The position numbers were made by a program, and so were the translations under genes. From a virus (taxonomy: Duplodnaviria > Caudoviricetes): a stretch of 64,000 nucleotides of DNA. Each line of letters begins with the position of its first letter. The stretch's first letter is position 1. Where the stretch lies: IMG/VR virus record IMGVR_UViG_3300005973_000002; one strand, written 5' to 3'. The notes under the pieces are model-generated. The model had not been told where the DNA came from. It was given only the letters and a program-made list of their open reading frames with translations, and made no database searches. Of the stretch, positions 5,589-64,000 are shown one piece after another.

Positions 5589-6326
5589 TTACTCTTTTTT
5601 GAGGTTGAAGTTGTAGACACAACAGTCAAGTCCAATGGCAACTTCGAGCACCAACAGATCTTTTTCTACAACTTTGTTTTTTGCCTGAAACTTTGCCCTG
5701 ATAGGAAAATCAGTTCGCAGAGAAATCGAACAGACCTCCATCCACTTGTCGCCATTATCAACCTCAACATCCATTGTTTTTTGGCTGTAAGATGGAAGAC
5801 GGTCAGAAACAACAATTCTAGTTGGCAAATGAACCATTTCTGCAATCATTTTTCGAACAGGTTCTAGCACTGCCGAATGATAGTCATTTAGTGTATCTGC
5901 TGTAAAAATGCACTGAAATTCCTGCTGATAAAACTCTTTCAGCCGCATGTTTTTGGTAACCTGGTCCTGTTCCCGTCGAAAACTTTTACCGGTCTGCCAA
6001 ACCACAAAAGGTGGGCGAGTTGGCTTTGAAAGTCCCCGGAGTAGATGGGCTGCGTATGCATACGAACCAGGCGTGGTTTCAGGTCGTAGAACGAGTCCAG
6101 GATTTTCCCCTTCTTGAAACCAAACATCCTCACGTGTATAGTTTGGGTTAATCAGAGTTTCAGGAGTAAGGATGGGAGTTTCAACCTGAAAAAAAGCCCA
6201 GGCCGGATTCATTTCGAGCAATGCCGTCTTTAGTTCAGCCAAAAAGTGTTGCTCAAACACTCTTCGTAGTCTGATTTCACGTTCAGACCAGAAAATAAGA
6301 CCGTTGCTGTTGTACAGGCTATCCAT
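5589..6326 (-). CDS. Stand-alone class II aaRS catalytic core, GlyRS(alpha2)-like, with no anticodon-binding domain
   Basis: Motif 1 region QVETPILTP, LRPETT, motif 2 GKSFRRE, RLKEFYQQEFQ, RLPSYS, WMEVCSISLRTDF. Motif 3 reads GLDC instead of GLDR. Only 245 aa. Confidence 0.8.
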   Translation of the reverse strand: MDSLYNSNGLIFWSEREIRLRRVFEQHFLAELKTALLEMNPAWAFFQVETPILTPETLINPNYTREDVWFQEGENPGLVLRPETTPGSYAYAAHLLRGLSKPTRPPFVVWQTGKSFRREQDQVTKNMRLKEFYQQEFQCIFTADTLNDYHSAVLEPVRKMIAEMVHLPTRIVVSDRLPSYSQKTMDVEVDNGDKWMEVCSISLRTDFPIRAKFQAKNKVVEKDLLVLEVAIGLDCCVYNFNLKKE

Positions 6327-6609: not shown

Positions 6610-6637
6610 AAAAAAAGGACGCCGAAGCGTCCTTTTT
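6610..6637 (-). terminator. Rho-independent terminator after the RNA ligase
   Basis: GGACGC-TTCG-GCGTCC followed by a T-run on the minus strand, with an A/T run on both flanks. Confidence 0.9.
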
Positions 6638-7365
6638 CAGTTGTATTCTGTTCCGCCCTTACGGGTGAGGTAATCACCGCTAACAGACTTTAGCTGAACA
6701 CGGCCAATTTCTTCGCTCCAGCGTTCTACCGTAGGTCGAACAACAACACCCTCACGGATATGCATTTCCTTACCGGAAATAGTCTCGAAGCCGTCAGTGT
6801 ACTCGTACAAAACCTTCTTCGAGAAGGGCCCACGGTAAAGCACCGGAACACGCTGAAGACCAAGTCTCTTGCAAGCCGCATCAAGCTCAGAGTCGTTCAA
6901 ATAACTGCCAGACCCTGGACGTCCAACATAAATATCAAATACTCTAAAACCGATCTCGACGTCCTTGTCGGCAGAACTGCCATAAGAAAGGTCCTGAACA
7001 CCACGTCCAAAAATCTCTCCAAGAACGTAAACCGGCTGTGGATCGAAATCGTGTTTTAGCTGATGACCAAAAGCAAATGAAATACGGTTGTCCATGTTGT
7101 AGTGTCGAGCGACACGCACGTATAGATTCGTCTTGTTGGCTTCGGCATCATACTTCATCGCCAGTCCACGAGCCGAAAGACCCTTGGATGAGATAATGAG
7201 ACGGCCCTCCTCGGGATGGGCATCCCTCGGCGGCATAAGGCCAATCATACACCAGGTGTTATGAACAACAATGCCTTCAGCAATATAGTTGTTGTTGCCA
7301 CCATCAATCTCTAAATCATAGAGATCACTATCACTTTCAACATACTCAATCTTAACACAGCGCAT
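6637..7365 (-). CDS. RNA ligase C-terminal part preceded by a 36-aa C-intein
   Basis: MRCVKIEY...YDLEIDGGNNNYIAEGIVVHN, then T as extein +1 (intein part 7258-7365). Ligase motifs follow: VLGEIFG, FRVFDIY, REGVVVRP, QLKSVS. Confidence 0.88.
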   Translation of the reverse strand: MRCVKIEYVESDSDLYDLEIDGGNNNYIAEGIVVHNTWCMIGLMPPRDAHPEEGRLIISSKGLSARGLAMKYDAEANKTNLYVRVARHYNMDNRISFAFGHQLKHDFDPQPVYVLGEIFGRGVQDLSYGSSADKDVEIGFRVFDIYVGRPGSGSYLNDSELDAACKRLGLQRVPVLYRGPFSKKVLYEYTDGFETISGKEMHIREGVVVRPTVERWSEEIGRVQLKSVSGDYLTRKGGTEYN

Positions 7366-7651
7366 TTTTTACTCTTTCTATCGTTTTTTCTTTTTGATTG
7401 TTCCAATCACTTTCCCAAACAATTAGAACTTTGTACCCTCTTTTGAGCAAGGCGGCGGTGCGCCTTTTATCTCTTTTCCATTGTTGCCCAACAGTCCTGG
7501 AAATCCAAGAGCAATATTCGCTTGGGTCGTGAAATTTTGTTGGATTACAATGGAACATATCTCCATAGAATTCCAAGATAACTTTCTCACTTTTCAACAA
7601 GCCGTCTACGATAAACCCTGATATAATTTCTTCACGATTTGACGCCTGCAT
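7352..7651 (-). CDS. Vsr/DUF559-like (EDxHD-type) endonuclease ORF between the intein halves
   Basis: FIVDG...VILEFYGDMFH...RDKRRTAALLKRGYKVLIVWESDW. Confidence 0.8.
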   Translation of the reverse strand: MQASNREEIISGFIVDGLLKSEKVILEFYGDMFHCNPTKFHDPSEYCSWISRTVGQQWKRDKRRTAALLKRGYKVLIVWESDWNNQKEKTIERVKNALC

Positions 7652-7659
7652 GGGACTTG

Positions 7660-8454
7660 CTACATGATTGGACTTTCAATATCTTCATCAGGCAAAAGTT
7701 TGCCAGCTTCCACCCACATTTGTCGGTCACGTGAATAAACGGGGTGATCCTCGGTTAAGGTGAGAGTAGAACCGTTTTCTAAGGTAAGCTTTACCCATTT
7801 TTTATCTTCACTGTTTAGCCGACGCATGCGACCAGTAATAGGTCGCTCAATATATTCCTTGCTTTGTTCATTATAAGATAAAACCGACTGAATTGTTTTA
7901 TCAGCCACTACTTCTGCGATAGACCGCTCGCTTCCATCTACAAGTCGGACCATACTTGCTTCATGCAAGCATCCATGAAGTTTCTCAGTGAAAACAACCT
8001 CTTCACCTTCCTCAAGAATGTGAGGAAAACGCTTAAAATTTTCGATATCGTACTTCAAGGTACGGTCCTGACCAGCAGCGAACACCTCACCGGAAAGATG
8101 GGCCGGAATTGGAGGCTCCCACTTGGTAATTCCAAGAATATTAGCAACATCAGCACCCTCTTGCCACTCAGGACGTGCAGGATACACAAGTCCCTGTGAA
8201 AGGATGCCACGAAGACGAATGGCCTTTACACGATTCTTTGCCTTTCCGGCAAGCTTACCCTCAAGACCCATTTCACGGAGGAGAGCCTGAGGAACGACAG
8301 CCTGTTCTGGAATGTAGGCAACGAGATCACCGCTCTTAAACTGGTCCTTGCGGACAATTGCTTGGTAATCGCCCACCTGGGCGAGTTCTAAAGCATCAGC
8401 ATTGGGGTGTTCAAGAACAGTAATCCGTTCGACAGTTACAGAAAAAGTTGACAT
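7660..8454 (-). CDS. RNA ligase (DRB0094/Rnl5-like) N-terminal part fused to a 103-aa N-intein
   Basis: The N-terminal OB-like domain (HPNADALELAQVG, IRLRGILSQGL) and motif I TEKLHG are followed by intein blocks CLHEAS (C1 codon 7969-7971) and LTLTEDHPVY; it ends at TAG. Confidence 0.9.
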   Translation of the reverse strand: MSTFSVTVERITVLEHPNADALELAQVGDYQAIVRKDQFKSGDLVAYIPEQAVVPQALLREMGLEGKLAGKAKNRVKAIRLRGILSQGLVYPARPEWQEGADVANILGITKWEPPIPAHLSGEVFAAGQDRTLKYDIENFKRFPHILEEGEEVVFTEKLHGCLHEASMVRLVDGSERSIAEVVADKTIQSVLSYNEQSKEYIERPITGRMRRLNSEDKKWVKLTLENGSTLTLTEDHPVYSRDRQMWVEAGKLLPDEDIESPIM

Positions 8455-20224: not shown

Positions 20225-20776
20225 TCATTGAATTTCTCCGAGTGCTAACTTGAGGATATAACGAGTAATCTCTCGGTCTTCTTCCCTGCGCTTTTGCTGT
20301 GCGTAATCCAATCCAAGTCTGTTGTAGTCCTCTTCATCCAATTTCGAAACCTTTTTGTGATATCTTTTTACCTTGTTTTCAAATGAAGTGTAATGTTCGG
20401 TTGGATTGACCAACGACAAAAATGCTTCATTTTCTCCTCGGCGCCAACGATTTGTTGTGGTGGATGCGGTACAAGATATAACCTTGCAATTAGGCCAGTT
20501 TCTAGCGCCCGCCATGCACAATAAATCTGCACCTCGGGCACTTACTGCCTTTTGCTTATATTCGCTTCCAAGCTCTTTACCTTTGGGAGACACATAAGCT
20601 CGATAAATAAAACTCTGGCTTTCCTCGTATGAATATGGCACATGAATAGCATGCAAGATCCTACTTGCACCAAGAGTCTGGGCGAGTTGATGAATACCAA
20701 TTCCACCACCAGTTACCACAAAAGCAAGTTTGGGACCTTGGTAACGATGTACGAAATCATCAAATACGTCTTGCAC
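20225..20776 (-). CDS. CinA/PncC-like domain protein
   Basis: LAFVVTGGG...LGASRIL...VPYS...AVSARGA...CTASTTTNRWRRGENEAF resembles the CinA-like domain that is usually fused to a cytidylyltransferase-fold domain. Confidence 0.6.
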   Translation of the reverse strand: MQDVFDDFVHRYQGPKLAFVVTGGGIGIHQLAQTLGASRILHAIHVPYSYEESQSFIYRAYVSPKGKELGSEYKQKAVSARGADLLCMAGARNWPNCKVISCTASTTTNRWRRGENEAFLSLVNPTEHYTSFENKVKRYHKKVSKLDEEDYNRLGLDYAQQKRREEDREITRYILKLALGEIQ

Positions 20777-21656
20777 ACTTTTCTCGCAATCTTTCCAGTT
20801 TTTCGTCTAGGCTTCGAAGGTAGTCTAATCCATACGGACCATTTTCTAAACCTTCATAAAGATGCTGTGGTAGGTCGTTTTCAATTTCTTTACAACAAGA
20901 ACCAATGCCCAGCGCCATGGCCGCAATTGAATCTACGTCGCCCGTATAATCAATACACTCTTTAAGGCATTCGCTCAAAGAATTATTTCTCAATACTGAT
21001 GAAATTGCTGCCTTGACACAGGGAATAGCATCACTAGTACAACGTTTTCCTACCGGCCAAAGATCTTTTTTATCGTTGAAAATTCTACTTGAACCACTAC
21101 CAAGTACAAGGAAATCAACCAAATTATTCTTTTTGCCATCATTGTAAAGAAAATAGTGTGTAGCCAAAGCAACTGCTTGCGAGGAAGCAATTGCATCAGG
21201 CGTATCGTGAGTCACTTGAGCTTGCATTCTAGAAAATGTTAAGACTTTATAAACGTTCGGTAGGTATCCGATCGAACACGATCTCATTGCTGCGCCGCAT
21301 TTATTTGACTTCTTCGACAGCTTGGCAAGCAACTCTTTACCAGACTCAACTTGATCTAAGATAGCTTGAAAACGACGTGAATATGCATTTCTTGCATCAC
21401 GTTTATACACCTCCACCCATTTGTTTGCGAGTTTGAGCGGAAGTGTATTTGGATCAAAATGGTCGTTTTCCAAAAGATACTCTGTTACACCAATTGACAT
21501 CTAGGTGTCATCTGTATATGAACCTGCTGGCAAATGTCCTGGAAGATTGTGCGGATAATATGTACTCAAATCATTTTTGATCTGGGTAAGTCGCTCAGGT
21601 TTTGCAAACTCAAAACCTCCTCCATAAGCATCCCCAATTCCGATTTTCACCAACAT
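20760..21656 (-). CDS. ADP-ribosylglycohydrolase (DraG/ARH family) with an in-frame TAG at 21501-21503
   Basis: An SD (AGGAG) precedes ATG 21656. Sequence reads MLVKIGIGDAYGGGFEF...GSYTDDT*MSIG..., then CGAAMR, VTHDTPDAI, GDVDSIAAM. The ORF track shows only the part after the stop. Confidence 0.9.
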
Positions 21657-31967: not shown

Positions 31968-32568
31968 TTAAGCTTTTTTGTTTTGATAATTCGCTTGAAA
32001 CTTATCTTTTGTCTCTATTGGGCAATTTGGTTTAATGCCAAGTGGGTTTGGGGTGGAATGTTTTGCAAACCACACACCAACACCATCTGAAACCAAACGA
32101 AAAAAATTGCCTAGGCCCTGTCGTTTCTGCGGGTAACAATTCATGAGGCGTTCTATCTGTCATCCAATAGAGATAATTCGGTTTCATTACTTCGTTTTTG
32201 GCATTGGGCTGGGAACAACTGCCCATATGATCTACATCATAGGTAATACAATCCCAAACACGGCAGCGACCGTCAGTTGACGCCATATAAATTCCCTCGC
32301 TCGTGCCCCAACCACCACCCCAACCAGCTCGATTGGTTCCGTCTGTGTGAATTCCTGGCCTGCGAAGAGTTTTGTCTTTTCTTACCATACCTTCATGAAC
32401 TGTTAGGTAAACAATCGAACCCTCTTTTAGAGGGCATTTATCAATCATTGATTGATAATGACTAAGGAAAGATGGAACGGAGTTGGGATCGCCAAAAATA
32501 ATTGGCATCATGTTTACATGAATGTTATTACTTTTAGGAAAAGTTACACTTTCAATTTCTCTATACAT
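31968..32568 (-). CDS. 2OG-Fe(II) dioxygenase-like protein with a +1 frameshift in a T7 run
   Basis: RRPGIHTDG (HxD), YWMTDRTPHE, RQFF. Removing one base of 32100-32106 restores RQFFRLVSDGVGVWFAKHSTPNPLG; the span is 601 nt = 3n+1. Confidence 0.7.
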
Positions 32569-32770: not shown

Positions 32771-33196
32771 CTAAGCAACATATACTAAACCATAATATTT
32801 GCCGACAGTTCTCTTGAACTTCCATTCGCCAAGCAAAACTCCATAAGTGCAGGCAGACTTTTGAAGAGCATGGAGAAAATCGGAATCACGAATATAAAAC
32901 AACTGTTTCGTTTCTGTATGTTCCAGAATTAACTGAGTGGTGGAATTGCAACTAATAAATCGTTCAACTTTGAAAGCGGCTTTGAATGGAGAATTATCTT
33001 TCCAGGTGACATTTAGATTATTATATCTTTTTCTGTTGACATAGTCAAAGTAACTAACGACGGAAACGTTCTTACCGCACGTCCACGGGACTCCCTTTTG
33101 GGTCCATGGGATTTGATAATCTTCACTTTTTTTATTCATTTGTTTCGAGCTGCCCCCTAACCATCCTATCTTTTCGACCTTTATATTTTCGGTCAT
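32771..33196 (-). CDS. Hypothetical protein, W-K-x-N-x-PFKA family (copy 1 of 3)
   Basis: WKDNSPFKAAF...GEWKF is shared with 36627-37019 and 37012-37422. Confidence 0.7.
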   Translation of the reverse strand: MTENIKVEKIGWLGGSSKQMNKKSEDYQIPWTQKGVPWTCGKNVSVVSYFDYVNRKRYNNLNVTWKDNSPFKAAFKVERFISCNSTTQLILEHTETKQLFYIRDSDFLHALQKSACTYGVLLGEWKFKRTVGKYYGLVYVA

Positions 33197-34022
33197 AGGA
33201 TTCTAACTGACGCAAATCCAAATTTGCATCCTTGCTTTTCATTGTTCCACCGCTCAGAAACAATTCAATCATTCTATCCTTTGTAAGAATTTTGGTTGTT
33301 TTGTCATCTTTCGAGGGACCCCATCCAAGCCTTGCCAAGAAATTAAGCATTGCATCAGGATCATATCCACTGTCAATATACAATTGAAATGTTGAAGCTT
33401 GTTCTCTTTTTGAGAGTTTTTTTCCCTGATGACGCAAAAGTCCAACGTGACTATATTTTGGCAAAACGCCGCCAAGGAGGTCATACAACAAAACCTGCTT
33501 TGCTGTATTTGTAATGTGGTCCACGCCTCGAATTATATGATTGATGTCCATTTCAATATCATCAACTACAGAAGCAAAATGATAAGTGGGACTACCGTCA
33601 GATTTGATCAATGTTAGATTATCAAACCCCCGAACATTGTCCGCCCGAATGGGAATGTTGCCAGCAATATCATCAACCCAATAACTTCTGGAAAGAAAAT
33701 CACCAACAAGATTTAAATGAACTCGCTTACCATCTCGAACGGCTTTGCCACTGTCTACCAGAAACGACACGGCAGCATCATAATGCTCCATTCTTTTACT
33801 CTGGTAGTCTAAACCATCCCAATCAAGCCCAAGCCACTCAAGGCTTTTCAAAAATTGGTCAGCCCATCTCTGCTCTGACCTTTCAAGATCGGTGTCATCA
33901 ATCCTAACAAAAAACTTACCACCAGAAGCTCTGGCGGCAAGCCAATTGAAATAAGCAGTTCTCATTGTACCCAAATGAGTAGGGCCTGTAGGTGAAGGTG
34001 CGATTCTAGTAAAAAACTTCAT
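33132..34022 (-). CDS. GluRS/GluQ-RS-like class I catalytic domain lacking the anticodon-binding domain
   Basis: TRIAPSPTGPTHLG (HIGH), RIDDTDLERS, PTYHFASVVDD, HIIRGVDH, KKLSKR (KMSKS), LNFLARLGW. It ends at about 296 aa, where the anticodon domain would begin. Confidence 0.9.
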   Translation of the reverse strand: MKFFTRIAPSPTGPTHLGTMRTAYFNWLAARASGGKFFVRIDDTDLERSEQRWADQFLKSLEWLGLDWDGLDYQSKRMEHYDAAVSFLVDSGKAVRDGKRVHLNLVGDFLSRSYWVDDIAGNIPIRADNVRGFDNLTLIKSDGSPTYHFASVVDDIEMDINHIIRGVDHITNTAKQVLLYDLLGGVLPKYSHVGLLRHQGKKLSKREQASTFQLYIDSGYDPDAMLNFLARLGWGPSKDDKTTKILTKDRMIELFLSGGTMKSKDANLDLRQLESYDRKYKGRKDRMVRGQLETNE

Positions 34023-35308
34023 ATTGCGCCACTTTGTCCAAAAAATGTCCAAGCTACATTTTCCCCGGAGAGTTTTGGTTCGCCTTCGTCGAAGGTATTT
34101 CTAATAGGCAACTCATGAACCTCTGCTACAACAGAGCAATGAATGGCTTGTGCATGATCAATAGCTACATCTAGACTATCACAAGGCCCTTGAAAATTTA
34201 AACCTTCGTAAGTATGCTCAAATACAAGGCAAAATAACATTATACCATCTTCAGATGGCAGAAATCTTCTTCTGTCATCCAGCATTCTCTGTCCTTAAAA
34301 AGGACCGTTGCTCCCAAATAATCATTTGGAAAATATATTTTTCCCCACTTGCCATACTTTTGGCCAACATACTTTGGAGAGTTGCAACTGTTTTTGATGG
34401 CCAAAACATACCATATCATTTTGAAAGATCAACAGGAATGCGAACCTTACGGAGATAGTCAGCAATTTGCTGAATGGCGTGTTCAACAACGCCTTCGGAC
34501 GGATTTGTGATCATATCCATCCTGAAGTGTTCTCCTGGGCCCTGAACACCCCAACTGCAAAGCATGAAAACATCATCGTCTTCCATAACGAATGAAATTC
34601 TACCGTGATTGGACTGCGGAAAATCAAATCCTTGATAGTAGACGATCATCTCTCCCTCGCCAATTTCAACATCACTATATTGCCTTGTTTCAGCAACACA
34701 TGAATATGTCCAAGAAAGACCTTGGCGGGCAAGATGTTTACATGCGATACCAATATATTCACATGTTTTATTATGATTCACGTTTTTCTCCAAACAACTG
34801 ATCATAATAAACAAACCCAATGAGTTCTTGTTTATCCTTTTCAAATTTGCCGCAATCCTGTTCCCATTTTTCCTTTAGCTCAATGTAATCTTCGTAAGCT
34901 TTATCTGATCGACCAGTAGGACCATAATGCAAATTTGGGACTTTTCCTTCATTATTATCTTTAAGTTTTTTATTTATAATACCTCTGCCGTTGAAGGGGA
35001 AATAATCTGTATGCAGCCCCATGTGCCCTTGCCATAAAGCATGTGTAGTAATTAAGCGAATTTTATCATCGTCTGTCAGTTTATAGACGTTGTATTTACG
35101 ATACCAGCCAAAATCATATTCTGTATCAATATCATCAGGGTCTTCGGCTACTGATACAAATTCTTCAAGCAAATCAAAATAGCATATTTCATTTTCATGT
35201 AACAAAACTCCACTAAGTGGTCCATCCCAATAATCCAAATGCCAGAGAATTTGCACGTTTTCAAGTTGTTTCATTTTTTTTGCTTTCCAATTTGTTTCAT
35301 CTTTTTAG

Positions 35309-35383
35309 CGAGACCTGTGGGATTTGAACCCACATCACTCCGGGTTAAAGCCGGCCGCATTACCAATTTTCTGCCAAGGTCCC
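35309..35383 (-). tRNA. tRNA with anticodon TTA (ochre-suppressor type; Gln/Glu-like loop)
   Basis: GGGACCT/AGGTCTC acceptor, G73, anticodon stem CCGG/CCGG, loop CT-TTA-AC (anticodon 35346-35348), T arm GTGGG-TTCAAAT-CCCAC. Confidence 0.85.
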
Positions 35384-35387
35384 ATTT

Positions 35388-35637
35388 GTGGCCGCCCCAG
35401 GAGTCGAACCTGGCTGTCCCACGACTGACGACCAAACTGTCCTATCTGCTTTGACGGGTCCTTCCCCCGTTTCTATGGCCACTTGAACTAACAACATTTC
35501 ATAATCTCATGGAAGCCACACACTTCCAGCAGGAATTGAACCTGCGCCGGGAACACTTGCCACTGTCGCCGAGCCAACTACTAGTTGTTATGTACGTCAT
35601 ATCGCCGTGCGGCAAAAACAGATAGGAACAGAACTTG
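35388..35637 (-). ncRNA. Unidentified structured RNA with two T-loop hairpins (YrlA/tRNA-like modules)
   Basis: A long-range helix of about 20 bp (35613-35637 with 35433-35453); GCAGG-TTCAATT-CCTGC stacked on TGGAAGT/GCTTCCA; CCAGG-TTCGACT-CCTGG; GTGGCC/GGCCAC. Confidence 0.6.
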
Positions 35638-35641
35638 TATG

Positions 35642-35998
35642 CTAACTTGTTATTTTTTTGTAACCCCTTCCTGCTACTTTCAAGTTTGCGCAAAGTTTAG
35701 CAGTTGCTTCACTTGGCTCGATTGTCAAGGCTGTGTACTGATTGATATCAGGCTCATAGAAAAGTGAATGCCTTAGTCCCTGGCTTTCGGTCAAGCAAAC
35801 AAATGCCTTCAATGCCGCTTCGTTTTTAACTCCCAAAACTACAATGGTGTTTGAATTAGTATACCACTTTCGCTCCTCTTCGGGGAAGTCGTGTGTAAAC
35901 TGATCCTTGGCATGAATGCTTTGTGCGATTTGATAGCCAGGCGAAATGTCCTGGCGAACCAATACATACATTTTCATTGTTGGTTGACTTTGCATCAT
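35642..35998 (-). CDS. Peptidyl-tRNA hydrolase 2 (PTH2)-like protein
   Basis: KMYVLVRQDISPGYQIAQSIHA, TIVVLGV, FYEPD, TALTIEP, LCANL. Confidence 0.75.
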   Translation of the reverse strand: MMQSQPTMKMYVLVRQDISPGYQIAQSIHAKDQFTHDFPEEERKWYTNSNTIVVLGVKNEAALKAFVCLTESQGLRHSLFYEPDINQYTALTIEPSEATAKLCANLKVAGRGYKKITS

Positions 35999-36456
35999 GC
36001 CACCTCACCGCTTTTATTGAGGATTTTAGTTACACGGCAAGAGACTTTAAATTTCTTAGGATTTTTCTCCCAACGAAAGATAACATTGTCGCCAGTCTTT
36101 AACCAATGAAGGATGTTGTCTTCATTGAACTCATTTTCAGACCAATAAACACGATAGCCGCCATAGATTATACAAATAGAAGCAATATTCCTAACAGCTT
36201 CATTGAGCTGCCAGTCATTAAAATAAAGTGACCTATTTGATTCAACGTCATCATACCGCTTACCCAACATTAGGGCATATGCTAGCTGGTGTAATCTCGA
36301 ATGCCAACCAAGAGATCGCTTTCTGTTCCACCCATAAGTTTTTCCTTCAAGGTGCTTAGAATTAATTTCTTTCTTTAGAATTCTACGAGACTCGTCGGTA
36401 AATCCATTAATAGCAGCTTTTAGCTTGTAAAGGTCTTTTTTCGTAAATGCCTTCAT
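35995..36456 (-). CDS. Conserved phage hypothetical protein heading the PTH2-like operon
   Basis: Strong SD (TTTAGGAGG) and the segment RSLGWHSRLHQLAYALMLGKRY; the stop overlaps the PTH2-like start. Confidence 0.7.
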   Translation of the reverse strand: MKAFTKKDLYKLKAAINGFTDESRRILKKEINSKHLEGKTYGWNRKRSLGWHSRLHQLAYALMLGKRYDDVESNRSLYFNDWQLNEAVRNIASICIIYGGYRVYWSENEFNEDNILHWLKTGDNVIFRWEKNPKKFKVSCRVTKILNKSGEVA

Positions 36457-36464
36457 TTTATCAT

Positions 36465-36564
36465 CCTCCTAAATTTGTTATAAAGTAACACACCAACTTT
36501 TTGGTAAAACAAAGTCGGTTTTAGGAGGTGGGCCTCGGTTATATATTTACCAGAAATGCAACAT
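36465..36564 (-). promoter_or_regulatory. Leader peptide / translational attenuator: MLHFW*IYNRGPPPK... overlapping an anti-SD three-way junction
   Basis: SD AGGA lies 7 nt before ATG 36564, with TAA at 36547-36549. Codons CCT CCT AAA (36520-36528) pair perfectly with TTTAGGAGG (36465-36473). P2 is ACCGACTTT/AAAGTTGGT and P3 is TGTTA/TAACA. Confidence 0.68.
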
Positions 36565-36626: not shown

Positions 36627-37019
36627 TTAGGCTAAGCAAACACTTAGGTATCGTCCTGATTTACGGAAAACCCATTCACCCACAAACACACCAGCAATAG
36701 CCGGCAGCGTTTTAAGTAGTTGAACAAAGTCTTCTTCCTTCATGACATATTCATAACCGTTTTCGGTATCATGAAGAACTGCTTGACAACTCGTACTCTG
36801 GTTTGAACTGTAAAGATGCGAAAGACTGAGCCCTGCCTTAAACGGCTTGTTTTCTTTCCATTCAATTGGTTCGGATTTGCGAATGTAGCCATACCCTCCA
36901 ATATTTGGATGCGCCATGTCGCAAGTTTCAGAATCTTTTTTGGGGCATTGACGTGGAACACATCCATGCTTTCCTACCACGTGAGGAACCAAAAAATTTT
37001 TATCGTCTTTTTCAGTCAT
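36627..37019 (-). CDS. Hypothetical protein, W-K-x-N-x-PFKA family (copy 2)
   Basis: EPIEWKENKPFKAGL...GEWVF; the start ATG overlaps the upstream TGA (ATGACTGA). Confidence 0.75.
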   Translation of the reverse strand: MTEKDDKNFLVPHVVGKHGCVPRQCPKKDSETCDMAHPNIGGYGYIRKSEPIEWKENKPFKAGLSLSHLYSSNQSTSCQAVLHDTENGYEYVMKEEDFVQLLKTLPAIAGVFVGEWVFRKSGRYLSVCLA

Positions 37020-37422
37020 TGTTAAATTCATTAGCCTTTTCGGCAGGAACTATTGAAAGAAAGCCACCATAACTATGAAAAACCCATTCGCCAAGACAAA
37101 CACCCATAATCCACGTTGTTTTATCCATCATTTCATTGAAAAGATCTTCGCCAACATAATAAGTGGCCTCTGTTTCCGTATTTCTCATCAAGAACTGAAC
37201 TGACGAACGTTTGTTTACAACCCTATCAAATCTCAGAGCGGCTTTGAACGGCTTATTTTTCCTCCACTCAATTGGCTCGCCATCGGCTCGTTTGTTGATG
37301 GTCCAATCGTATCTTCCAGGCCAATGTGTTTATTTTCGCTTGGGGCGTCGCCAAGGAACAGAACCATCTGGGTAAAATGGAATTTCATCCTCATAAGGAT
37401 TTTTGAGCTTTCTATTTGTCAT
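37012..37422 (-). CDS. Hypothetical protein, W-K-x-N-x-PFKA family (copy 3), with an in-frame TAA at 37330-37332
   Basis: MTNRK...RRPKRK*THWPG...EPIEWRKNKPFKAALRF...GEWVFH; 137 codons, matching the length of its paralogs. Not in the ORF track. Confidence 0.85.
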
Positions 37423-37810
37423 CACTATTCTTTTTCAGTATTAAGTTTAGCGATAAGTGGATCATTAGGGCCAAGATATTCAACCAATTTATCTGGCCTT
37501 GCAAGCAGCCATTGATCACTCGTGATTGGCTTTCCTTCACATTCTGGTGGAAAAATTTCTATTTGTGGACAGTTGCCCCAATCTACATCAGCTTCGGAAA
37601 TATATCCCCATCCATATTCCGTGCCCTCCCAACCAGGATCAAAAAATATTTTTGTGGAATCTTCTACGTTAACAACACCCCATTCATGTTGGCCAAAGTA
37701 TACTTGGACATGCAATTCATCTTCATGCTTGTGAATTGGACCATGTTCATGCCAGTTTGCTTTGGGGTGTGCCCTAAGCAAATCTTCTTATGATTTATAA
37801 ACCTTTACTT

Positions 37811-38383
37811 TCATTTTTTTCGCTTGTTGTTTTCTTTCAGCATGTTGATAAAGGTTAGCCCTTGTTCCCTCGCATCATCAATTGCCACATGAGTATGAGG
37901 CATATTTTTAGGAAACCACCGTTTTGGCCAAAAGCGTTTGCTTGTTTTCTTGTAACCTGTTTGTCTCATTGCCATCACATAAGTTCGTACGTCTACACAA
38001 GAATGACTAAAAAGAGAATGACCAGTAAAATGCTTCATATACCAGTACATAAAAAGAAAATCAAAGCCGGATGGCATACAAACCATCACAGGTTTATATG
38101 TGCTTCCACATAATCTTTTTACCCATTTATCAAATGCCTTAAAGGCATCTTTAGGTTTCTGAAGATTTCTCCTGTGAGCATTCCACGCATCTGGAAATTG
38201 CTTCCACCATTCCATGGTGGAAGCATCTGGCTGGGCACCGGGAAGCAACTCTAGGTTTGCTTCAAAAAAATCTAATTCTTCCCCATCTTCGGTAAAAGCA
38301 ACAACACCAAAGCTGAGCAATGAATTGATTGCAGGCAATGGACCATCGGTTTCAATGTCCGTGCTAAAATATAATTCTTTCAT
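37811..38383 (-). CDS. DEDDh 3'-5' exo(ribo)nuclease (Rv2179c-like)
   Basis: STDIETDG, SGFDFLF, VDVRTY, HTHVAIDDAREQ. Confidence 0.85.
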   Translation of the reverse strand: MKELYFSTDIETDGPLPAINSLLSFGVVAFTEDGEELDFFEANLELLPGAQPDASTMEWWKQFPDAWNAHRRNLQKPKDAFKAFDKWVKRLCGSTYKPVMVCMPSGFDFLFMYWYMKHFTGHSLFSHSCVDVRTYVMAMRQTGYKKTSKRFWPKRWFPKNMPHTHVAIDDAREQGLTFINMLKENNKRKK

Positions 38384-38671: not shown

Positions 38672-39701
38672 CTATTCTTGTAAAATCCAAGCTGCATCAT
38701 GACTTACTTTAGTGTCGTAAATCGACAATTCAACAATCTCTTTTTCGATTTGAAAATCAAACTGGTGAAGTTCAGCTTTGATTTCTTCAAGTTTCTTTTT
38801 AAAATCCTCGTAGTACATCTCGTAGTTACGATAAGTCACCATAATAGTGAAAGTCCCGTCATCATATCGCTTGAAAACATTTGAACTTCTACGAGCCCCA
38901 TGTTTACCAGCAATGGTTTTTAAGAATCTCTAATTTTTCTTCTGTGCAAAGACAGTTGAGATGACTCTCAAAGTAACAGTTGGGCGGCATTACCGGATTT
39001 TCATGCTTTTGCGAAGGCGCAGCCGGATGCCAGGGAATAGTTTCGATCTTTTCACGGACAACTTCCCAGCCGCCTTGTCGCAAAGAATGTGTGATGCGCT
39101 TCATTTCTTCATAAGCCTCACGGTTGTTACCCATGAAAGTGGAAGACGTCATTAAATCTTTCATAACCTTGCCACCGCTAAGGTGAAGATCAAGCAAAAT
39201 TGGTTTTACACCAGCATCCTTGCAATCTCTTTTAAATTCTTCAACTGTATGTTTTTGCAGTGTTTCGAGATTGTTTTTTTGTAGTTTGGAAATTTCTTCA
39301 TTTGAAATAAAAGCATTGCCATCAGAAGTGAAAACGGGCTTACTTTTTTCAATATCAACAGTGACATGAATTTCGTATGGAATTGGATATTTGAGTCTAT
39401 GTTCCCTTGCCTGTAGGTCTGCCCATATTTTCATTTTGTGGCTAACCATCGTTTCGAACTCTTCGTCCGAAAAATCAAGGTCATACACAATCGACTGCAA
39501 GCAAAGATACCCATCTGCACACTCTTCAAGAATTCGAGCCTTACTTACAAAACGATGATTGGTCGCAAATGCGTTATCGTATGGAAGAACTACCTTTGCA
39601 AGCTCGCCAACTTCTTCACAGGTCTTCAAAGCCTTTTGTGAAAGGTTCTTCTCATCAGATTTGGTAAGCGTCTTAATATAGTCAAGTATTTTCTTATCCA
39701 T
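38672..39701 (-). CDS. MazG-like NTP pyrophosphatase fused to a C-terminal duplicated alpha/beta domain; +1 frameshift at 38917-38921
   Basis: LKTCEEVGELAK...ILEECADGY, then YEIHVTV...VVREKIE...YFESH. Removing one base continues as KTIAGKHGARRSSNVFK...EKEIVELSIYDTKVSHDAAW; the span is 1030 nt = 3n+1. Confidence 0.75.
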
Positions 39702-40818: not shown

Positions 40819-40829
40819 CTATTATTTAT

Positions 40830-41181
40830 TGGACCCGATCGGAATTGAACCGATGTCCTCAAGATCGCCTAAAAAAACTTCTACGTTACCTAGTTTGATT
40901 TTCAGATTACCGGTCCGAGGTATCAGACAACCAACCGGGTTCTTTCATTTGAAATCTTGATCAGACAGCCAATAGAAATCTAACTCTAGTCTAATCCAGT
41001 CCTAATAACGACGCCTTATAGAATGCAAGGACACTCAAGCTATAAGACGGCTCTCATCAAGCAGCGAGAGCAAGAGGTGCATTGTCTGCATTTATAATCG
41101 TTTATTGGATTTAAGTGGTTCTAAACACCCACCGTAACGCCATTTTTTCTTCTTACCCCAAGTCGAAACCAGTACGGGCCC
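40830..41181 (-). ncRNA. ssrA: tmRNA (352 nt), tag peptide ADNAPLALAA
   Basis: 5' GGGCCCGTACTGGTTTCGAC; acceptor with G3.U70; ATAAAT then GCA GAC AAT GCA CCT CTT GCT CTC GCT GCT TGA (41057-41089); 3' GGAC-ATCGG-TTCAATT-CCGAT-CGGGTCC-A. Confidence 0.95.
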
Positions 41182-56806: not shown

Positions 56807-56926
56807 CTCCAGAGGAGGGATTCGAACCCCCGACTAATCAGCTATCTTTGAAACCATCGGATTCGCATTGCAACAAGCTTTATCCGATTCCCACAACCGA
56901 TCGCTCTACCATTGAGCTACTCTAGA
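56807..56926 (-). tRNA. tRNA-Asn-type body with a 48-nt insertion in the anticodon loop
   Basis: TCTAGAG/CTCTGGA, G73, GCTC/GAGC D arm, ATCGG/CTGAT stem, GGGGG-TTCGAAT-CCCTC. The loop is 55 nt instead of 7. Confidence 0.82.
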
Positions 56927-59471: not shown

Positions 59472-59552
59472 ACAAAGAACTCGGATTCGAACCGAGAATA
59501 CCTTTACAGGCGGCGCAAGTTGCGAAGTGTATACCATTTCCACCATTCTTTG
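59472..59552 (-). tRNA. Type II tRNA-like RNA with a collapsed anticodon arm
   Basis: Perfect CAAAGAA/TTCTTTG acceptor, GGTGGAAATGGTATACAC D region, GCCT-GTAA-AGGT variable arm, CTCGG-TTCGAAT-CCGAG. The anticodon arm is only CGCA-ACT-TGCG. Confidence 0.7.
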
Positions 59553-60609: not shown

Positions 60610-60681
60610 TGGGTTGCCTGGGATTCAAACCCAGAACCAACATTTTAAGAGACTGTTGCACTACCATTGTAGTGACCACCC
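60610..60681 (-). pseudogene. Degenerate tRNA-Lys(CTT)
   Basis: Loop CT-CTT-AA; T-loop TTTGAAT (C56 lost); C at position 8; mismatches in the acceptor and anticodon stems. Confidence 0.65.
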
Positions 60682-60920: not shown

Positions 60921-60991
60921 TTGACCCTGGGATTCGAACCCTCAGTCTCCCGATGTTATGTCGGGCGTTCTACCGTTGAACTAAACGGGTC
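60921..60991 (-). pseudogene. Degenerate tRNA with a non-canonical anticodon loop and a deletion in the T/acceptor 3' strand
   Basis: GTTC/GAAC D arm, CCCGA-CATAACA-TCGGG, GAGGG-TTCGAAT-CCC then AGGGTC (about 5 nt missing). Confidence 0.65.
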
Positions 60992-63884: not shown

Positions 63885-64000
63885 TTAGAAATGGACAGGA
63901 AACGGAATAGCATCGTGCACTTTTTCAAGCTTTGCCGCAAACATTACAAGTCGTTCAATGCCAAGTCCAAATCCAGCATGGGGCACAGTACCCCATCGAC
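63885..64000 (-). CDS. asnS: Asparaginyl-tRNA synthetase, C-terminal 37 residues (gene starts beyond the window)
   Basis: [37 protein letters not shown] is the AsnRS-type motif 3. Confidence 0.85.

Follow-up and report, generated by a model that had tools for sequence, protein, structure and literature searches.

A glutamyl-tRNA synthetase (GluRS) without an anticodon domain is encoded in the genome of a jumbo phage (Caudoviricetes; IMG/VR record IMGVR_UViG_3300005973_000002), 64,000 nucleotides of which were analysed here as 'the window', and this gene may be the partner that allows the phage to read through UAA codons. The synthetase shares its neighbourhood with tRNAs, a tmRNA and a PTH2-like gene, and belongs to a real, conserved variant of GluRS found in jumbo phages. 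The best explanation, to which we give a probability of roughly one half, is that an anticodon-blind GluRS charges a neighbouring tRNA with a UUA anticodon, leading to partial read-through with glutamate. Charging of this tRNA was one of three roles proposed in a first-pass annotation of the sequence, and it is the best supported of the three through its clade-wide linkage; it is the linkage that is observed, and the charging that it suggests. The features discussed are collected in Table 1.

Table 1. Features of the window considered in this study (positions are those of the 64,000-nucleotide stretch).
Feature	Position	Strand	Basis or remark
ADP-ribosylglycohydrolase with in-frame TAG (21501-21503)	20760..21656	-	TAG opposite Gln in 86% identical ortholog
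Minimal GltX-derived glutamyl-tRNA synthetase, 296 aa	33132..34022	-	Rossmann fold, shortened acceptor-binding insertion, stem-contact fold, basic terminal helix
Basic terminal helix, residues 269-284	33171..33218	-	Where anticodon domain would start
GWGPxxDDK loop of stem-contact fold, residues 233-241	33300..33326	-	Conserved, family-specific insertion, not in GltX or GluQ
KMSKS equivalent KLSKR, residues 202-206	33405..33419	-	Arg as in GltX; GluQ usually Gln
Junction of ~40-aa zinc-binding insertion deletion, residues 95-101	33720..33740	-	Alignment with GltX and GluQ
HIGH equivalent HLGT, residues 16-19	33966..33977	-	H16 and G18 invariant in 55 family members
tRNA with UUA anticodon, candidate substrate	35308..35383	-	54 bits; G1-C72, G2.U71, C5-G68/C6-G67/U7-A66, G73
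PTH2-like peptidyl-tRNA hydrolase	35642..35998	-	Syntenic with synthetase clade-wide
153-aa unknown protein, first gene past leader	35995..36456	-	Similar-sized gene at same place in relatives
Leader ORF with invariant in-frame TAA (36547-36549)	36478..36564	-	TAA followed by RGPP codons predicted to pair with Shine-Dalgarno of next gene
Gene with in-frame TAA at codon 31 (37330-37332)	37012..37422	-	TAA opposite Glu in 4/6 homologs; TAA in four other assemblies
Adjacent gene with in-frame TAA at codon 9 (37788-37790)	37425..37814	-	TAA opposite Arg; N-terminus poorly aligned

The synthetase gene runs from ATG to TAA, and its ATG overlaps the stop codon of an 88-aa gene upstream, which makes a TTG at 34052 an improbable start. 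The sequence is that of a class Ib synthetase in which the ATP- and glutamate-binding motifs are intact, and which has neither a zinc insertion nor an anticodon domain. The HIGH and KMSKS equivalents had been recognised at first pass, as had the absence of the anticodon domain, and both observations stand: a Pfam search returned tRNA-synt_1c (E=5.6e-61) and matched no anticodon domain, whilst the alignment to the gltX model stops at model position 315 of 470. When compared with bacterial GluRS structures, the protein gives two aligned blocks, which leave out the zinc insertion and stop short of the anticodon domain; its AlphaFold model is confident (pLDDT 93). The zinc/acceptor insertion had been described as shortened. 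It is reduced, but given that the segment between R77 and D117 has a median length of 39 aa in the family (versus 81 aa in GltX and 65 aa in GluQ) and is devoid of cysteine in the window protein, the insertion is essentially deleted. The stem-contact fold that follows KMSKS is complete, in contrast to GluQ, and had been overlooked. Seven residues (R6, S10, H16, Y147, R165, H169 and K205) are invariant across 55 family members; we take these to be the glutamate and ATP contacts known from Thermus thermophilus GluRS, where R165 presumably corresponds to the arginine that selects Glu over Gln. The family is further marked by an invariant Asp42 replacing the usual Glu, alongside the loss of ~40 aa of the zinc insertion, the DDK loop and the basic terminal helix.

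With ~300 aa, a catalytic part only and a Glu site, the phage enzyme recalls GluQ/YadB (TIGR03838; PDB 4A91, 1NZJ), the architecture to which it had first been likened. The resemblance appears to be superficial and the GluQ reading weak: size and catalytic-only layout do match, whereas the protein is of the GltX type in its profile scores and overall fold, in its diagnostic residues and in its stem-contact fold. The protein scores 263.4 bits on gltX (TIGR00464), below the curated cut-off of 289.95, and 171 bits on YadB against a cut-off of 276.7; it falls under the cut-off of all five GluQ models. In a fold comparison GltX structures were closest (TM up to 0.86), with the E. coli GluQ structures at 0.72 and 0.62. 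Where GltX and GluQ differ, the residues are those of GltX (T44, P145, H169, N172, R206), the GltX-type stem-contact residues N227, W234, F255, D269, L273 and Y280 are kept, and the diagnostic motifs of the family are DDTD, GxDH..N and KxSKR as opposed to the RIED[IL]D, GAD[LI] and KLSKQ of GluQ. The tail after KMSKS has a median length of 83 aa in the family versus 63 aa in GluQ and conserves GltX-like stem-contact residues, and the CxC..YxxxC zinc site of GluQ is lacking. GltX (PDB 7K86, 8I9I) thus shares the catalytic fold, the Glu/ATP site, the Glu-specific Arg and Tyr and the stem-contact fold, and is the best match by profile, structure and tree placement; the phage enzyme differs from it in the missing anticodon domain, the deleted zinc insertion, the new DDK loop and the basic terminal helix.

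The protein is present in identical form on 19 contigs examined, which come from several samples and reach 461 kb. The best 120 matches are all 273-365 aa in length, and comparison with the nearest relative gives a dN/dS of 0.149/1.478 (about 0.1), which together with the identical copies excludes an assembly artefact or a pseudogene. Several members lie on phage contigs of 300-600 kb, and one of 288 aa is found in the unannotated phage record LR745206; the best matches in cellular genomes are at most 40% identical, and those that were extracted are full-length GltX. Longer members (P0130, P0141, P0143, P0148 and P0160; 358-499 aa) were considered as carriers of an anticodon domain and rejected, their C-terminal tails being unrelated. 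A phylogeny against GltX and GluQ, as proposed in the first-pass annotation, recovered the 55 members as one clade (SH-aLRT 100), nested in the best tree within GltX and separate from 13 GluQ sequences. An AU test did not reject a grouping of the family with GluQ (p=0.46), so that the tree is compatible with either origin. The window protein falls within a 17-row subclade (support 99), and subclade-specific residues in the acceptor-binding and stem-contact segments (N129, G132, F133, K264, D265) may reflect co-adaptation or plain ancestry.

Outside the window clade, the gene is often preceded by clusters of tRNA-Glu genes, which make up 22 of the 46 tRNAs within 1 kb of it and 6 of the 126 tRNAs at 1-10 kb; the linkage extends over nine loci in several branches, with a nominal p of 3e-10 for loci that are not independent. 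Among the tRNA-Glu genes beside family members (L020, L026, L027, L195, L197), 10/28 are without at least one canonical D-core determinant, similar to a bacterial set (12/28). Two carriers (L014:3507-19411 and L013:6291-19706) have the gene amid several synthetases, EF-Tu, RRF, an L12-like gene and QueF. [quoted passage not shown] For the family as a whole, such anticodon-blind 3'-end glutamylation is very probable. The GltX-derived enzyme would activate glutamate with ATP and transfer it to the 3' end of tRNAs recognized through the acceptor stem and D-stem only, and in the wider family it would serve the phage's own tRNA-Glu set.

In the window clade, UUA tRNAs are the sole tRNAs within 2 kb of the gene in six of the seven lineages (window, L005, L010/L011/L412, L012, L272 and L273); in the seventh, L275, no tRNA was found within the 13.5 kb examined, and no tRNA-Glu lies near the gene in any sampled clade locus. 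The anticodons UUC, UUG and UUA differ at position 36 alone. This position is read by the anticodon domain, the one lost here (PMC2777447). All nine clade UUA tRNAs, which apparently represent three body types, carry G1-C72 together with C5-G68/C6-G67/U7-A66, a combination present in 22 of 743 other tRNAs and in 0 of 14 UUA tRNAs of other phages; since this signature was picked after the alignment had been viewed, and the clade UUA tRNAs may be kin, it is to be regarded as a lead. Two of them have exactly the acceptor stem of proteobacterial tRNA-Glu, and the window UUA tRNA, whose CCA end is not encoded, belongs to the type whose acceptor stem is least like that of tRNA-Glu. None has U11-A24, U13-G22 or a short variable loop, the features of tRNA-Glu that E. 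coli GluRS requires (PMC9976931), and classification by the whole tRNA body assigns them to Arg, Lys, Ser or Ile and in no case to Glu. Derivation of the UUA tRNAs from tRNA-Glu through a single anticodon change accordingly draws no support from whole-body similarity. A pattern search of 30 records, mostly of other carriers, found no UUA tRNA in them.

A general dependence of UUA tRNAs on truncated GluRS was rejected, as 0 of 18 UUA-tRNA phage records outside the clade encode any GluRS; large phages with UUA tRNAs and no GluRS include L125 (a 529-kb record), L084, L095, L104, L134, L165 and L179. The window also encodes a class II synthetase catalytic core of 245 aa, in which no further domain was matched (5589-6326, minus strand), an alternative partner for the UUA tRNA, and the C-terminus of a class IIb (Asp/Asn/Lys) synthetase crosses the window end (63885-64000, minus strand).

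The synthetase belongs to a cluster in which a short leader is followed by the gene for the unknown protein, the PTH2-like gene, the UUA tRNA and the synthetase itself. The leader has the form MLHFW-stop-Ixx-RGPP, and its TAA is invariant in all six clade lineages that cover the region (window, L005, L010/L011/L412, L012, L273 and L275); the L272 sequence does not span it. It was not seen at family loci outside the clade, and a search of viral contigs with the leader pattern gave no further clade member, the remaining matches looking like chance. In the predicted fold the proline codons of the leader pair with the next Shine-Dalgarno sequence (z -1.7, a modest value). No clear promoter or terminator delimiting the cluster as a single transcript was found. 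In L275, the synthetase still stands behind the UAA-gated leader even though its locus yielded no tRNA. Conservation of an open frame past a fixed UAA suggests, as far as sequence can, that read-through matters to the phages of this clade, and the leader is stronger evidence of read-through than are the in-frame stops in window genes. Other elements lie in and around the cluster (all on the minus strand): a structured non-coding stretch (35388-35637) that separates the PTH2-like gene from the UUA tRNA and has two T-loop-like motifs and no Rfam match, and paralogous unknown proteins of 120-150 aa, of which every clade member has copies around the cluster (in the window, 32771-33139, 36627-37031 and 37012-37422). 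Elsewhere on this strand are the tmRNA (40827-41181; tag ADNAPLALAA), an RNA ligase split over two genes with intein halves (6637-8454), and tRNA-like genes whose anticodon loop carries an insertion or is lost, or whose scores are weak (56807-56926, 59472-59552, 60610-60681 and 60923-60990).

Three window genes carry in-frame stops where their relatives stay open (Table 1), and the UUA anticodon could read all three, that is two TAA and one TAG; GAA to TAA is a single substitution. TAA terminates 31 of the 95 window ORFs, about a third, and UAA is therefore not reassigned. Genome-wide recoding of TAA, TAG or TGA is likewise unsupported in the region examined, which holds one well-supported internal TAA, and the initial matches in read-through alignments turned out to be mostly off-frame. 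Tandem back-up stops are not enriched after TAA. Two frameshift-like breaks are present among the ~36 orthologs in the window (near 38916 and near 32101; assemblies differ in the length given to the gene at 32032-32568), so that ordinary decay also accounts for the in-frame stops.

From the architecture, conservation, linkage and shared acceptor signature observed here, we infer the activity and substrate of the enzyme and, with them, read-through and its regulation. The synthetase of the window clade would most likely charge the co-encoded UUA tRNA as a private pair, which would compete with release factors to insert glutamate at some UAA codons and, by wobble, at UAG. As amidotransferase relies on U1-A72 (PMC9976931), G1-C72 would spare the Glu-tRNA from amidation, and it would hence be glutamate that enters at part of the UAA and UAG codons. 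Read-through of the leader UAA would then open the Shine-Dalgarno sequence of the first gene of the cluster. The complete scheme, a natural orthogonal ochre suppression in which a GluRS has been re-aimed at UUA tRNAs by an acceptor-stem signature, inserts Glu at UAA whilst UAA is still a stop, and has its own cluster gated by read-through, is put forward tentatively.

Several other roles for the enzyme were weighed. In one of them, the enzyme would be GluQ-like, or repurposed in another way, and would adenylate Glu in order to modify a protein or a base in tRNA or DNA. Such a role would fit the gross size, would be compatible with the AU test (p=0.46), and could be signalled by the invariant Asp42 and the new conserved loop, which might point to a changed acceptor. 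It is nonetheless unlikely: Asp42 occurs in 24% of the GltX set as well, the GltX-type residues and stem-contact fold are kept, the family falls inside GltX in the best tree, no TGT gene was found in 10 carrier genomes, tRNA-Asp lies within 1 kb of the gene at one locus as against nine for tRNA-Glu, and no DNA-hypermodification genes were recognized among the called neighbours. The modification of tRNA wobble bases or DNA bases, as initially proposed, is thus unsupported, and the linkage to queuosine or tRNA-Asp that would be expected of GluQ is missing. Highly improbable is an inactive relic, a tRNA-binding decoy, or one half of a split GluRS that is completed in trans. The last of these would have a parallel in E. 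coli, where, going by the title of Dubois 2009, a free distal domain reportedly stimulates C-truncated GluRS (cited in PMC3927822). The catalytic residues are, however, invariant at a dN/dS of about 0.1, and the separate anticodon-domain gene that the first-pass annotation had envisaged as completing a conventional GluRS was not found in any of 10 carrier genomes, of which 7 are at least 90% complete (positive controls worked), nor was one (PF19269) in the window or in 12 family loci.

The two remaining alternatives concern other tRNA substrates. Production of Glu-tRNA-Gln for host GatCAB by a non-discriminating, GluRS2-like enzyme would agree with the missing anticodon domain, the reader of position 36 (PMC2777447), with the tRNA-Gln genes that adjoin a few family members (L194, L024 and L070), and with the nearest full-length rows of the tree, which include, with weak support, the long-branch L403 and L404 (443-450 aa). 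This is quite unlikely given that the zinc insertion, a proposed contact of GatB (PMC4381286), is deleted, that the window clade has no tRNA-Gln near the gene, and that its UUA tRNAs carry G1-C72 and not the U1-A72 on which the amidotransferase relies (PMC9976931). The enzyme may otherwise be an anticodon-blind GluRS for tRNA-Glu only, whether of phage or host, to which the UUA tRNAs are mere neighbours, charged otherwise or uncharged. The strong tRNA-Glu linkage across the remaining family speaks for this, as do the bodies of the UUA tRNAs, which are not Glu-like, the occurrence of UUA tRNAs in phages without a GluRS (the 18 records, and phage G; PMC12484599) and the second synthetase core of the window; but the clade loci have a UUA tRNA where tRNA-Glu would be expected nearby, their UUA tRNAs have a rare acceptor signature in common, and L275 keeps the gene behind a UAA-gated leader with no tRNA in the 13.5 kb examined. 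We consider a tRNA-Glu-only enzyme possible but rather doubtful.

Charging of the UUA tRNA, as preferred here, has partial precedents. Desulfobacterales have a natural synthetase without an anticodon domain and a private stop-reading tRNA (CysRS*/SelC*; PMC9437257), although that system is cellular, inserts Cys at UGA via SelB* and involves another synthetase family. In phage AP1, a TrpRS is co-located with a suppressor tRNA-UCA, and the pair is orthogonal in E. coli (PMC12636597); co-location of synthetase and stop-reading tRNA is likewise conserved here, in 6/7 clade lineages. The AP1 pair works on UGA with Trp and lies in a putative code-change operon, whereas here UAA is a common stop and the anticodon cannot be read by the enzyme. 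The same source reports background signal for 20/20 phage UUA tRNAs tested in E. coli extract, with no partner named in its accessible part, and the UUA tRNA of phage G is entered without an amino acid (PMC12484599); no cognate synthetase for phage UUA tRNAs was found in the literature as far as these two sources are accessible. Phage GluRSs are already on record among huge phages, where they were proposed to act on phage tRNAs (PMC7162821, Extended Data Fig. 7), with no truncation mentioned in the accessible text; the truncated family without an anticodon domain is a new variant, and its link to ochre suppression is testable. No paper describing a phage GluRS without an anticodon domain was found in a literature search whose reach mostly excluded subscription titles.

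The truncated GluRS is a concrete candidate partner for phage UUA tRNAs and one that can be tested directly; if the pairing is true, it would be a natural UAA-suppressing pair, useful in genetic-code engineering. Whatever the outcome for the UUA tRNAs, the family is a widespread natural GluRS without an anticodon domain that is under strong selection, and it offers a living test of the hypothesis that early synthetases selected their tRNAs by the acceptor and D-stem alone.
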